A stretch of DNA of 64,000 nt from sequence record PQ330092; one strand, written 5' to 3'. Shown piece by piece: positions 3,232-9,621 of this stretch. A model generated the notes under the pieces. The model had not been told where the DNA came from. It saw nothing but the letters and a program-made list of their open reading frames with translations, and ran no database searches. The position numbers and the translations under genes were made by a program. This DNA comes from Escherichia phage JP4. Numbering within the stretch: the first letter of the stretch is position 1; the number at the start of each line of letters is the position of its first letter.

Positions 3232-6200
3232 TTAAGCTGTACGTTGTGCAATAAACATATCTGCTACTGGACTCACACCGTCATAAATGACTTGGTAAAT
3301 GGTCACACTACCAGCAGTTTTGTTTAGAGTTCCATCAACAACCGCATAAGTACCGTCAGTAGTAAAGTTTCTATTACCTGTTGTATCTTGTTTCACATAA
3401 ATGTATACTGAAGATGCTTTACCACCGCCGATTAGACCAGTGATTGGTGCTAGAGTTGTATCTTGATCTAGAGTGATAAAGTATACGTTGCTAGTACCGT
3501 CTGGGGTCCAAGTACCAGTTGGTGCGATAACAGAAGAAGTTACTTGATTAGGAATAACATCATATTTTTTAGTAGTTACTGTTGTAGTAGTCAAGTCAGC
3601 ATTAGTAGTTGTTAATTGACCAGTTACAGTTACATCTTTATCAAATACTGCATTTTCTTTGAAAGAAGATGTTGCATTGACAGTTAATGTATCAGCAGCC
3701 GCGTCACCTAAAACAACACTACCATTTGCAGTCATTAATCCAGTAACAGTTAAAGTACCACCGATTGTTGCTGCTCCAGTAACAGATGCACTAGCAAGTG
3801 TTGCTGCACCAGAAGTAGTAATAGTAGTTACTGAAGTTGCTGCTAGGGTTGCAGTACCTGTTGCAGAAATATCACCACCAACAGTTAGGTTACCAGAAGT
3901 AATCCCAACGGTTCCAGTAATGTTAGCACCACTTGACATTGTTACTGCACCACCAAATGAACCAGTAGTAGTTACTTCAAGGGTGTTCCCTTTTAGCAGA
4001 CCAGTTGCAGTAATACTTGTACCTGCGGTAATGCTAGTACCAGCAGCAACACTGTTGGTTGCAGTTAATGATTTAACAGCTACATCAGAGTTTGCTTGGT
4101 TTAGTGTTGCGTTTAGAACACCAGTTACTGTAAAGTTACCGTTGTTAACTACGTTACCATTGATTGTTAAGTTGTTGTTTTGTGAACCAACATCACCAAT
4201 AGTTGCTGATTTAGAAATCAACTCTGCACCAGAAGTAATATTACCCGCTGCACTAATAGTGTCAGCCGCAACAACTGCATAAGGTTCGATTGTTTGACCA
4301 CTAACATCAATATCAGCGTTGATACCACCATCTACACGCAAGGAACCAGCAATGTAAGTGTTAGGGAAAATCTGAACTGTTTCTGGTTGTTCACCGATCT
4401 TAGTACCAATAATAACATTAGAACCAGTTTTCACTGCACCAGAAGTTGTTAGTGAACCTAAAGTTGCTGCACCAGTTACACCTAGTGTACCACCAATTGT
4501 TGCATTGTTAGTAACTGCTAATGCAGTTCCTTCACCATTAAGAGCGATTGATGGAGCAGTTGCTGCACCAGTTACACCTAGTGTACCACCAATTGTTGCA
4601 TTACCATCTGAATGTAGTGTGGTTGCAACAGAAAGACTGTTTGCAACTACATCAGTACTAGCTAAATCCAATGCACCTGGCGTTAATGTACCAGTAATGT
4701 TAACATTATTACCAAAGGTTGCTGCACCAGTTACATCTATTGTAGTACTAAATGTACCAGAAGTTGCAGATACCGCACCTGAATCTAGTGAACCGACAGT
4801 TGCCTTTCCAGTTACACCTAGTGTACCACCAATTGTTGCATTGTTAGTAACTGCTAATGCAGTTCCTTCACCATTAAGAGCGATTGATGGAGCAGTTGCT
4901 GCACCAGTTACACCTAGTGTACCACCGATTGTTGCATTGCCGTTTGAATGTAGGGTTGTTGCAACAGAAAGACTGTTAGCATCTACATCAGTACTAGATA
5001 AATCCAATGCACCTGGGGTTAACGTGCCAGTAATATTAACATTGTTACCAAATGTTGCTGCACCTGTTACACCTAGTGTAGTACTAAATGTACCAGAAGT
5101 TGCAGATATTGCACCTGAATCTAGTGAACCGACTGTTGCCTTTCCAGTTACATCTAAAGTACCACCAACTGTTCCATTTGTGGTTACTGCCAATGTACCA
5201 GTACTTAATTCTTGTGCAGTTACCTTACCGGATGCAGTAACAGTTGAAGTGGAAACACCACCAGTTAGAGTACTTGCACCAGTAACACTTAATGTGGTTG
5301 CAGCAGTTACGCTATTCACGTTAAGATCAGCACCGGATAGGTCCAAACCACCTTCAGGAATAAATGCACCCTTAACAGTTAGTTTTTGTACAGTACTGTC
5401 ACCAGTTACATCTAGAGTAGATGCTGTAAGGCCACCATTCATACTAGCTGCACCAGTAACACCAAGGGTAGTAGTTACAGTTGCACTATTAAGGGTAGAG
5501 TCACCAGAAATATTAGCACTTGGTGCGGTAATAGTTCCTGCATCAACTTGAATACCACCATCAACTACTTGAATACCACCAGTATTAACTGTTAGTTTAC
5601 CACCAGTTGACAATGTGTTTGAAACTGTAGTTGCACCAGTTAACGTTGTGGTTCCAGTAACGCCCAAGTTACCAGAAATAGATGGACTACCTGTAATGTT
5701 ACCTGTAGTTAGAATCAAATCAGTACCTACAGTGGTAGAGCCAGTACTTTCTAGTGTTACACCGACGATGTTTGCAGAACTTAGGTCAATAGAACCATCA
5801 ACAGTTAAGTTACCTTGAACGGTTGCATCACCTAGAGAAGTTAATGTCTTCACAGACACATCAGTTGTGCTAAGATCAATAACACCCGCAGTTAGTGTTC
5901 CAGATACTGCTAAATTACCAGTAATCGCGGTATTTTTAGTAATGGATACATTTTCTGCCGCTGAAGTAATAGAACCAACAGTAAGTACACCACCAACAGT
6001 TGCGTTATTAGTTACATTTAGAGCAGTTCCAACACCAGATAGTGTTGCTGACCCACCAGTAATTGCACCTGAGATTGAAGCTGTTGCTGCTGAAACATCA
6101 CCAGAAACTACTGCATTTGTTGCATTTAGAGCAGACACTGTAACTTCAGTACTTTGAACTTTAGGTAGAACGTTGATACCTTCTGCACTACTAACTGTAA

Positions 6201-9200: not shown

Positions 9201-9621
9201 CAACATCAGCAGTAATATTACCTTTAAATGCTGTTGTTTCAGCAACTTCTAAGTTTTTAACTTTAGTTGCTTGTAGAGTGGTTGTACCAGCAGTTTGTGT
9301 AAAATCAGAACCAACTGATACAGTACCGTTAAAGGTAGCGTTTGAATTAATTGTTGCTGTATCAGACCCGACAACTGCACTACCGATTGTAGTATTACCA
9401 TCAACACCAAGACCACCAGAAAGTGTTGCTTTGCCACCAACATCTAAAGTAGATGTAATGTTGGCAGTTGATGATTCAATGGCAGTAAAAGTTGCATTTG
9501 CAAAAGTTACAGTACCATTTACAGTTAGGTTATTATTGAAAACAGCATTTCCTTTGACTAAAAGATCCTTACCAACCGTACCAGCACCAGTAATATCTAA
9601 GTCAGTTTTTATTGAGTACAT
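3232..9621 (-). CDS. Giant tail-fibre/adhesin-like protein (2129 aa) with internal tandem repeats
   Basis: Single uninterrupted 6.4-kb ORF; T/G/S/A/V/N-rich; three classes of internal repeats visible at DNA and protein level; RBS ggaggg upstream of ATG at 9621. Confidence 0.6.
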   Translation of the reverse strand: MYSIKTDLDITGAGTVGKDLLVKGNAVFNNNLTVNGTVTFANATFTAIESSTANITSTLDVGGKATLSGGLGVDGNTTIGSAVVGSDTATINSNATFNGTVSVGSDFTQTAGTTTLQATKVKNLEVAETTAFKGNITADVGTTAAFDKITANTAEITNVSTTDISSTGTATFKDVTISGTLGGEFNLSDLNAVTLNVTGASNQQGAVTFGANVTGINSTATFKDIRIGSNSESQTFRLSFPYTAPGKRPTVILQNEIQSELMSPANLTVLTSASFGNASLSSYGITGNGLNKLDYLTVSGNNTQSPDTPLLEVQKGKTKVADFEVTGTATIPNIESTGTANFNNINISGVLGGTFQLDDINAVTLNVTGATSLVGGVTLGSNITGYNSTATFKAISLGQNSQDAAVKLGFGYTAPGQRPTVILPNEVQSEVVSPSTLNVLKTATFGNASLSSYGITGNGLNKLDYLTVSGNETQAPDTPLLEVQKGKTKVADFEVTGTATIPNIESTGTANFNNINISGVLGGTFQLDDINAASLNVTGATSLVGGVTLGSNITGYNSTASFKAISLGQSSQDSAVKLGFGYTAPSQRPTVILPNEVQSELVSPSTLNVLKTATFGNAALSTYGITGNGLNKLDYLTITGNATQDPSTPFLQVGGKAILNDVDFTGTVTGLTVDVSGQDLTPNSVVAATNIKGATLESTGNTTVGAKLTVTGDIAGTTATLSGALSAGSVSSGSITGTTSVSAPTISASTEVTAPTITASGTVSGQTINGTNISATTLTAPTISGNTNFTENVDITGNLTVTGTVTPGTIDLSTTDVSAKSITTTAGANIGGDLVVQGSFDLSAADINVKSLTSSGIVKSNDLVNANVLPVLNSTTITATTVNADDITVTGSANLGTIYSSSSVLVGSTLTVTGETTTASLVTPTISNASGVTISNNTNVTGDLTVTGAVIPGSIDLATTDVNAKSITTTAGATIGGNLTVNGTVDLTTADVTVKSLTSTGAIVSNESTISSVLPKLQSTDATIATLGSTTANITNLNVTGASTVADVTSSGKVKAVSVETPTISNVDGVSISNNTSITGDLTVSGTVTPGAIDLSTTDVSAKSITTTAGANIGGDLVVSGTVDLSGADVSVKSLTSTGIITVSSAEGINVLPKVQSTEVTVSALNATNAVVSGDVSAATASISGAITGGSATLSGVGTALNVTNNATVGGVLTVGSITSAAENVSITKNTAITGNLAVSGTLTAGVIDLSTTDVSVKTLTSLGDATVQGNLTVDGSIDLSSANIVGVTLESTGSTTVGTDLILTTGNITGSPSISGNLGVTGTTTLTGATTVSNTLSTGGKLTVNTGGIQVVDGGIQVDAGTITAPSANISGDSTLNSATVTTTLGVTGAASMNGGLTASTLDVTGDSTVQKLTVKGAFIPEGGLDLSGADLNVNSVTAATTLSVTGASTLTGGVSTSTVTASGKVTAQELSTGTLAVTTNGTVGGTLDVTGKATVGSLDSGAISATSGTFSTTLGVTGAATFGNNVNITGTLTPGALDLSSTDVDANSLSVATTLHSNGNATIGGTLGVTGAATAPSIALNGEGTALAVTNNATIGGTLGVTGKATVGSLDSGAVSATSGTFSTTIDVTGAATFGNNVNITGTLTPGALDLASTDVVANSLSVATTLHSDGNATIGGTLGVTGAATAPSIALNGEGTALAVTNNATIGGTLGVTGAATLGSLTTSGAVKTGSNVIIGTKIGEQPETVQIFPNTYIAGSLRVDGGINADIDVSGQTIEPYAVVAADTISAAGNITSGAELISKSATIGDVGSQNNNLTINGNVVNNGNFTVTGVLNATLNQANSDVAVKSLTATNSVAAGTSITAGTSITATGLLKGNTLEVTTTGSFGGAVTMSSGANITGTVGITSGNLTVGGDISATGTATLAATSVTTITTSGAATLASASVTGAATIGGTLTVTGLMTANGSVVLGDAAADTLTVNATSSFKENAVFDKDVTVTGQLTTTNADLTTTTVTTKKYDVIPNQVTSSVIAPTGTWTPDGTSNVYFITLDQDTTLAPITGLIGGGKASSVYIYVKQDTTGNRNFTTDGTYAVVDGTLNKTAGSVTIYQVIYDGVSPVADMFIAQRTA
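4472..5143 (-). repeat. Two tandem ~336-bp (112-aa) in-frame repeat units inside the giant fibre gene
   Basis: Near-identical blocks containing ccagttacacctagtgtaccacc...gcagttccttcaccattaagagcgattgatgg start at about 4472 and again at about 4808. Confidence 0.8.
6200..7300 (-). repeat. Three ~425-bp in-frame repeat units inside the giant fibre gene
   Basis: Blocks near 6272, 6700 and 7121 (gatctccaccaatatttgc...ctcaaatcaattgcacctgg...); outer copies near-identical, middle copy diverged. Protein motif DLSTTDVSAKSITTTAGANIGGDLVV recurs. Confidence 0.7.
7560..9100 (-). repeat. Three tandem ~510-bp (170-aa) in-frame repeat units inside the giant fibre gene
   Basis: tctaatttgtttag(g/a)ccattaccagtaat recurs at about 7721, 8231 and 8741, each followed by ~200 bp of near-identical sequence. 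Confidence 0.85.

Follow-up and report, generated by a model that had tools for sequence, protein, structure and literature searches.

In-frame duplications of tail-fibre domains have been described in the Xanthomonas phages OP1, Xp10 and Xop411 (PMC2248197) and, as cited in the same paper, in gp37 of phage T4 (Tetart et al., 1996). In these proteins, the tandem units stem from recombination between repeats and vary in number among relatives; the units are small, lie in the receptor-binding or N-terminal region and have a demonstrated effect on host range. Repeated fibrous domains are also present in T4 gp12 and gp34, the latter being very long and containing triple-beta-helix segments (PMC5537660). 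Two giant proteins of Rak2-like jumbo phages have been detected in virions by mass spectrometry (MS), namely, gp256 of phAPEC6, a 'tail fiber protein' (15 peptides; PMC7247149), and CBB_226 of phage CBB, its syntenic homologue of 1553 aa (10 peptides; PMC5259590). Here we consider a gene of the same family in Escherichia phage JP4 (PQ330092), located on the minus strand at positions 3232–9621 of a 64,000-nt stretch of DNA, the whole of which is referred to below as the window. The gene encodes a giant virion fibre of an Asteriusvirus, i.e., a Rak2-like E. coli jumbo phage, and, as in T4 gp37 and the OP1, Xp10 and Xop411 fibres, it carries in-frame tandem duplications that apparently result from recombination between repeats and differ in number among relatives. 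By contrast, its units are shaft modules of 112–170 aa, with an unchanged tip, and are known here from sequence alone.

The explanation that we favour, and that as a whole we hold to be likely, is that of a giant modular fibre in which the number of modules is altered by unequal recombination. The fibre would consist of a conserved N-terminal anchor, a long shaft and a small conserved C-terminal beta-sandwich, with the shaft assembled from in-frame tandem modules of three kinds, A (170 aa), B (~103–154 aa) and C (112 aa). The modules would represent old duplications, each diverging independently, with neighbours retaining patches of DNA homology through which misaligned homologous recombination, between co-infecting or replicating genomes, might occasionally gain or lose exactly one module. 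In the window phage, the product would be a third A unit, a chimera of copy 2 and copy 1, along with a second C unit, as in the PBECO4 lineage, and the effect would be a stepwise change in the length and reach of the fibre that leaves attachment and tip function as they were. The gene is a single open reading frame (ORF) of 6390 nt for a product of 2129 aa (208.7 kDa), and every repeat period within it is divisible by 3, hence in frame. Its parts, all on the minus strand, are as follows:

3232–9621, minus strand: complete fibre ORF, with the ATG at 9621 and the stop codon at 3232–3234
9136–9621, minus strand: N-terminal domain, aa 1–162 (MYSIKTDL...), 43–99% identical in all 27 homologues compared
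8626–9135, minus strand: module A1, ancestral copy-1 type, aa 163–332, 510 nt
8116–8625, minus strand: module A2, the extra chimeric unit, aa 333–502, 510 nt (from sliding-window identities)
7606–8115, minus strand: module A3, ancestral copy-2 type, orthologue of unit 2 in two-copy phages, aa 503–672, 510 nt
5722–7338, minus strand: family B, four diverged units, aa 762–1300 (from self-comparison), namely B1 (aa 762–910), B2 (aa 911–1043), B3 (aa 1044–1197) and B4 (aa 1198–1300, partial)
4402–5178, minus strand: family C, aa 1482–1740 (from Tandem Repeats Finder), namely C1 (4843–5178, aa 1482–1593), C2 (4507–4842, aa 1594–1705) and a partial third unit (4402–4506)
3235–3534, minus strand: C-terminal globular all-beta domain, aa ~2030–2129 (...DVFIAQR; from AlphaFold2 and homology)

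An earlier note, made from the letters of the window, had described three families of near-identical, in-frame tandem repeats. The three families do exist, at approximately the coordinates that it gave, but the middle one, listed there as three copies of ~425 bp at 6200–7300, actually comprises four units at 5722–7338 with start-to-start spacings of 465, 414 and 435 nt, and near-identity holds for the 336-nt pair and for parts of the 510-nt units only. The three A units (7606–9135, aa 163–672; BLAST self-match E = 0) follow one another at intervals of exactly 510 nt (170 aa), and their whole-unit DNA identities amount to 72% for A1/A2, 85% for A2/A3 and 64% for A1/A3, reaching 95–100% in local 60-nt windows; A3 is 96% identical to unit 2 of phage UB. 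The B units, with 60–73% identity in DNA and 40–77% in protein, are old, diverged repeats. In family C, for which Tandem Repeats Finder reports a 336-nt (112 aa) period with 2.2 copies at 4450–5178, 91% matches and no indels, the units are ~91–92% identical (BLAST self-match E = 1e-165) and contain exact matches of 45–46 nt. The protein contains 12 occurrences of a motif, G-x-[ILV]-D-L-S-x-x-D-[VI]-x-x-x-S, two in each B unit, one in each C unit and the others at other module boundaries, and its recurrence accounts for the diffuse protein self-similarity (25–40%) that searches with 80-aa fragments detect across the whole shaft. Because the motif recurs across B, C and the module boundaries, it also suggests that all three families might descend from one ancestral shaft module.

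When the gene was compared with those of ten relatives by pairwise BLAST, the alignments were collinear, and the offset jumped by exactly −510 nt within family A and, in the 121Q-type phages, by another −336 nt within family C. Counting of the units with hidden Markov models (HMM) sorted the close relatives into three classes:

Three A, four B and two C units (3A/4B/2C), 2129 aa: the window and CRJP21
Two A, four B and two C units (2A/4B/2C), 1959 aa: UB, PBECO4 and Salmonella phage SD-6_S16 (the genes of PBECO4 and SD-6_S16 are interrupted by record ends)
Two A, four B and one C unit (2A/4B/1C), 1827–1841 aa: 121Q, SHEFM2K, phAPEC6, ELP-22, slurp01, E9.1, EC22.5-2, SP27, ph0011 and UE-S1

Phages G17, Sharanji and ECO103 4-12-1 can be assigned to the 2A/4B/1C class by the geometry of their BLAST matches rather than by HMM counts. 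Thus, the copy number is not invariant among related phages, a comparison that the earlier note had proposed as a check, and the differences amount to exactly one 510-nt unit, one 336-nt unit, or both. Among close relatives, the extra unit A2 is found in the window and CRJP21 only. The more distant Asteriusvirus alleles and metagenomic homologues (30–58% identical, 1175–2120 aa) mostly contain two A units, although three are present in homologues P0002, P0007 and P0008 and one in P0018; since two is the prevailing number, two A units represent the ancestral state. Two side observations concern the same locus. Salmonella phage SD-6_S16 (OR699182) was obtained with Salmonella Typhimurium as the host; its fibre gene, within which the record ends, is 97.8% identical to those of the E. 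coli phages. In a second Asteriusvirus clade (Ecwhy_1, fEgEco12 and BF17), the locus holds two tandem paralogous giant fibre genes, of ~4.9 and 5.7 kb, a whole-gene duplication on top of the intragenic module duplications.

A trace of the underlying event is retained in A2. With the A units aligned from gene nt 451, a starting point that precedes the aa 163 unit boundary given above by 36 nt, A2 begins with ~210 nt that match UB unit 2 at 98–100% identity; these are followed by ~150 nt with 93–97% identity to 121Q unit 2, and the closing ~130 nt share 90–100% identity with unit 1 in all close relatives. The same division is apparent in the protein, the successive thirds of A2 being 96%, 92% and 62% identical to A3 vs 63%, 61% and 96% to A1, and the switch between types falls within a patch where the type 1 and type 2 units are ~83–85% alike. 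Unit A2 is a chimera, the 5' two-thirds or so of copy-2 type and the 3' third of copy-1 type. An arrangement in which a unit 1 is followed by a unit with a type 2 5' part and a type 1 3' part, and then by a unit 2, is the expected product when unit 2 and unit 1 are misaligned and cross over, which argues that A2 arose by unequal crossover between these units of two genomes. In homologue P0002 (58% identical, 2120 aa), the middle A unit is also chimeric but switches type at the end of its first third, and unit 1 of the same protein is its nearest match (83%); this breakpoint differs from that in the window, and therefore the expansion is independent. The earlier suggestion that the number of modules changes in frame through unequal recombination is thus supported by the −510 and −336 offsets, the A2 chimera and the P0002 expansion, that is, by a chimeric junction unit, whole-unit in-frame differences, and recurrence with different breakpoints. 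The ratios of nonsynonymous to synonymous substitution rates (dN/dS) between duplicates are 0.07–0.19 (0.19 in family C), and all copies are under purifying selection.

At the two ends of the protein, conservation is preserved whatever the length. The N-terminal domain, which presumably attaches the fibre to the virion, is found in 58 phage records, all from Rak2-like jumbo phages of Enterobacterales and Xanthomonas, and yields a weak beta-helix signal (Pfam bactofilin, E = 4e-4, below the cutoff). The C-terminal ~135–150 aa are retained in every homologue (33–98% identical), and the C-terminal domain is 98% identical between the 2A+1C and 3A+2C phages; AlphaFold2 models it with 8 strands at a pLDDT of 85–95, and Foldseek finds 190 matches to it in BFVD at E ≤ 1e-3, mostly C-termini of phage tail fibres, including K9L5R6 of phage phiTE. 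The last ~180 residues match 9CUY_g, the 793-aa tail fibre of phiTE, with E = 7e-28, the only sequence match in PDB at E ≤ 1. We assume that chain g of 9CUY/9MJN is the phiTE long tail fibre. Because both end domains are kept across the family (1175–2129 aa), it is mainly the shaft that varies in length. In the sequences compared, we saw no sign that the fibre gene alone sets host range, because the tip is 98% identical between classes and the gene of the Salmonella phage SD-6_S16 is 97.8% identical to that of the window.

The comparison of units within and between genomes bears on whether the repeats are homogenised by ongoing gene conversion between the units of each genome, the mode of maintenance that the earlier note had also put forward. 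Concerted evolution of this kind could account for the short stretches of 95–100% identity between neighbours, at alignment columns 31–90 of A2/A3 and in the last 30 nt of A1/A2, and for the 45–46-nt exact matches in family C, but the high-identity stretches are exactly those predicted by the chimeric origin of A2. Moreover, orthologous A units are 85–98% identical between phages, whereas the paralogous units 1 and 2 are only 63–65% identical in each phage; likewise, C1 and C2 are ~90% identical in the window, UB and CRJP21 alike, compared to 99–100% for orthologues. Because orthologous units are far more alike than paralogous ones, in A as well as in C, we find no concerted evolution, and maintenance by gene conversion has to be regarded as highly unlikely. 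The differences in copy number could, alternatively, be artefacts of short-read assembly, with repeats collapsed or expanded, given that many jumbo-phage genomes were sequenced with short reads and that some records are unverified or cut within the fibre gene (PBECO4 and SD-6_S16). Yet the units differ by 8–36%, enough for unambiguous assembly, every class is represented by several independent records, and the A2 chimera is unique in sequence, in frame and common to the window and CRJP21, which are separate isolates distinguished elsewhere in their sequence by two indels of ~1.4–1.5 kb. An assembly artefact is, to our mind, scarcely credible.

A different possibility is that the repeats provide a reversible switch that operates at high frequency in the phage population, affecting host range or resembling phase variation, in which case lysates would be mixed in copy number. 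Close relatives do have different copy numbers, more than one change has taken place, and, according to PMC2248197, duplications of tail-fibre domains alter host range in OP1 and T4. Contingency loci, however, consist of short, near-perfect repeats that change frequently and reversibly, whereas the units here are long (336–510 nt) and only 81–92% identical, a poor substrate for frequent slippage. At least ten isolates, independent of one another and from several continents, were counted as 2A+1C, and BLAST geometry adds another three, which argues for stability; in addition, the duplicates have synonymous divergences (dS) of 0.2–0.4, the tip domain is the same between variants and the gene of the Salmonella phage is nearly identical. 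We therefore consider a frequent switch to be improbable.

Several points weigh against the occasional gain or loss of whole modules by unequal recombination, the explanation that we prefer, and have to be set beside the evidence in its favour. The halves of A2 differ from the source-type units of the same genome with dS of 0.34–0.39, and C1 differs from C2 with dS of 0.20, compared to 0.02–0.13 for window–UB orthologues; with dS above that of the orthologues, the duplicates are not very young. The third A unit was either built from alleles that had already diverged or later overwritten by allelic recombination; diverged recombining partners are also indicated by the presence of both UB-like and 121Q-like segments in A2. 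For family C, the choice between a gain in the PBECO4 lineage and a loss elsewhere would be settled by parsimony alone. The predicted structure of the shaft is another such point. An AlphaFold2 monomer of one A unit, computed from a 34-sequence alignment of units, has a pLDDT of 71 and a pTM of 0.38 and is almost all coil; such a poor model could be consistent with an obligate intertwined oligomer but is no proof of it. The shaft is probably a trimeric, intertwined beta-helical fibre, to judge from its composition, weak bactofilin and LbH matches, and analogy to the phiTE and T4 fibres.

What a change in module number would mean for the dimensions of the fibre can be estimated from fibres of known or predicted length. 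The T4 gp34 protein, with 1289 aa, forms a half-fibre of ~70 nm. Combined with the long tail fibre of phiTE, for which 793 aa correspond to a predicted 51 nm, it gives a scale of 0.054–0.065 nm per residue, at which each A unit would add ~9–11 nm and each C unit ~6–7 nm, and the window fibre would measure ~115–138 nm, ~15% more than that of 121Q. On the same scale, fibres of 1553–2129 residues would span ~85–138 nm and carry a small C-terminal globular domain. Unusual hairs have been observed on the tail sheath of CBB, phAPEC6 and fEgEco12; in CBB, these are 119 ± 10 nm long and end in a tiny globule, the baseplate fibres measuring only 28.6 nm, and RaK2, according to the same paper, has no homologue of the fibre protein (PMC5259590). 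Because the predicted length and the small C-terminal globule agree, the hairs are a better fit than the short baseplate fibres. It is possible, although we propose it only tentatively and with some doubt, that this fibre family forms the ~120-nm tail 'hair' or 'whisker' of the phAPEC6, CBB and fEgEco12-type phages, with the number of A and C units setting the length of the hair. The proposal draws only on lengths and on presence or absence, including the presence of the protein in virions of hairy phages; in our literature search, no paper was found that assigns the hairs to a gene.

The assignment of the gene to giant virion fibres, the first element of the earlier note, is upheld. The product matches PHROG 4549 ('tail fiber') with E = 5e-261, and the fibre region is 99.5% identical to that of Escherichia phage vB_EcoM_CRJP21 (gp_304) and 82–98% identical to those of 18 other Asteriusvirus records, including PBECO4, UB, 121Q and phAPEC6. 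It is the orthologue of phAPEC6 gp256 and 121Q gp571 and a homologue of CBB_226, all of which are annotated as tail fibre; for the 121Q-type orthologue (1841 aa), the calculated mass is 180.38 kDa, exactly that listed for phAPEC6 gp256, and in phAPEC6 the orthologous gene also bears the locus tag gp256. The presence of the window fibre in the virion would follow from its MS-detected counterparts phAPEC6 gp256 and CBB_226. The gene sits in the tail/baseplate module, near genes for a baseplate wedge protein, a hub/lysozyme, a sheath stabiliser and a 3333-aa virion protein, so that both the full-length homology and the gene neighbourhood are those of the PHROG 4549 fibre family. Neither Pfam nor NCBIfam assigned a family to the fibre; PF26209 is precomputed on homologues. 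A scan of viral contigs with the single protein as a query found only 121Q, compared to 11 loci with an alignment-based query, and within the window tblastn detected no paralogue of the fibre. We consider the annotations 'YadA domain', 'autotransporter' and 'flagellar hook-length control protein' in relatives to be noise caused by low-complexity beta-helix sequence.

Compared with other fibres of the Rak2-like phages (phAPEC6 gp256, 121Q gp571 and CBB_226), which it resembles in both end domains and in lying syntenic to the baseplate module and the DUF4376 gene, the window fibre is, together with CRJP21 gp_304, the longest seen (2129 aa vs 1175–2120), with one A unit more than in all other sequenced Asteriusvirus genomes and one C unit more than in the 121Q-type phages. 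The phiTE fibre (Vequintavirinae) is described as trimeric, with a predicted extended beta-helix shaft of ~51 nm, and shares the C-terminal ~180 residues with the window fibre, but it has an N-terminal helical-bundle baseplate anchor that the window fibre lacks, and its C-terminal half, including the shared part, was not resolved experimentally. With T4 gp34, the resemblance is only architectural, although the database name of the relatives is 'long tail fiber proximal subunit': the search of PDB at E ≤ 1 yielded phiTE and no gp34, Pfam and NCBIfam yielded nothing, the repeat units differ, and partners corresponding to gp35–37 were not identified.

Change of length through duplication of fibre modules is a familiar mechanism and not a new one, whereas the map of the A, B and C modules, the series of alleles and the legible chimera seem to be undescribed; our literature search found no paper on these repeats, the module architecture or its polymorphism. 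The locus provides a clean, dated example of fibre length change by whole modules in which the recombination chimera can still be read, and at least two independent expansion events are visible in one protein family. The 2A+1C, 2A+2C and 3A+2C forms constitute a natural allelic series in close, cultivable coliphages, which could be used to relate fibre length to adsorption through capsule or lipopolysaccharide (LPS) and to identify the virion appendage that the fibre protein forms. For phage engineering, the series marks the module boundaries at which the shaft tolerates insertion or deletion.

The product of the ORF is rich in threonine (18.6%), glycine (12.3%), serine (10.4%), alanine (10.1%) and valine (9.8%) and contains no cysteine. 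A GGAGG lies 8 nt upstream of its ATG, and a consensus scan places a TATAAT and this GGAGG in the AT-rich spacer between the fibre start codon and a hairpin that ends the upstream gene. The features next to the gene are the following:

9723–9751, minus strand: terminator-like hairpin with a 13-bp stem and a T run, at the end of the upstream gene (consensus scan only)
2388–3167, minus strand: gene for a DUF4376 protein of 259 aa, downstream of the fibre gene (Pfam DUF4376, E = 6e-9; PHROG 17968)
2357–2380, minus strand: terminator-like hairpin after the DUF4376 gene (consensus scan only)

Because the two hairpins (9751–9723 and 2380–2357) flank them, the fibre and DUF4376 genes probably form a putative two-gene unit and would be co-transcribed; their order is kept in all relatives, and CBB_225, the homologue of the DUF4376 protein, is a virion protein by MS (PMC5259590). 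In CRJP21 and UB, an additional 1368-nt 'structural protein' gene is located between the gene for a 654-aa protein and the DUF4376 gene. It is missing from the window (at ~2303–2387), as it is from 121Q, which makes the window a mosaic of CRJP21-like and 121Q-like arrangements.

Long plus-strand ORFs also run across 3232–9621; we rejected these as antisense by-products, as dN/dS in the minus-strand fibre frame is 0.03–0.19 over alleles and duplicates and the product has been seen by MS in relatives. In the PBECO4 record (KC295538/NC_027364), the linear record begins and ends within the fibre gene, which is left unannotated, and three 'hypothetical proteins' are annotated instead on the opposite strand, with lengths equal to those of the window plus-strand ORFs 4505–5551, 5867–6157 and 8948–9691. 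These three are almost certainly spurious.

Four further genes of the window, all on the minus strand, deserve mention. The gene at 10673–11278, for a 'colanic acid-degrading protein', encodes 201 aa here vs 713 aa (2142 nt) in CRJP21, UB, 121Q and others, because 1536 nt (512 codons) have been deleted internally and in frame, with the original start and stop kept. At the deletion junction, the BLAST segments overlap by 19 nt (10819–10837), which suggests microhomology, and the middle of a putative depolymerase or tail protein, presumably its enzymatic portion, may thus be missing from this phage. An HNH/homing-endonuclease-like ORF of 254 aa (34055–34819; PHROG 559, E = 8e-57) is located immediately upstream of the gene for the baseplate wedge, in the minus-strand run of tail/baseplate ORFs. 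The 3333-aa virion structural protein (20538–30539; PHROG 10938), encoded beside the baseplate wedge gene, is probably, by size and position, the counterpart of phAPEC6 gp245 (381.9 kDa), which was detected by MS (PMC7247149). Finally, a 387-aa 'tail protein' (11293–12456; PHROG 13565) shows a weak collagen-repeat signal, and its homologue CBB_228 is a virion protein (PMC5259590).

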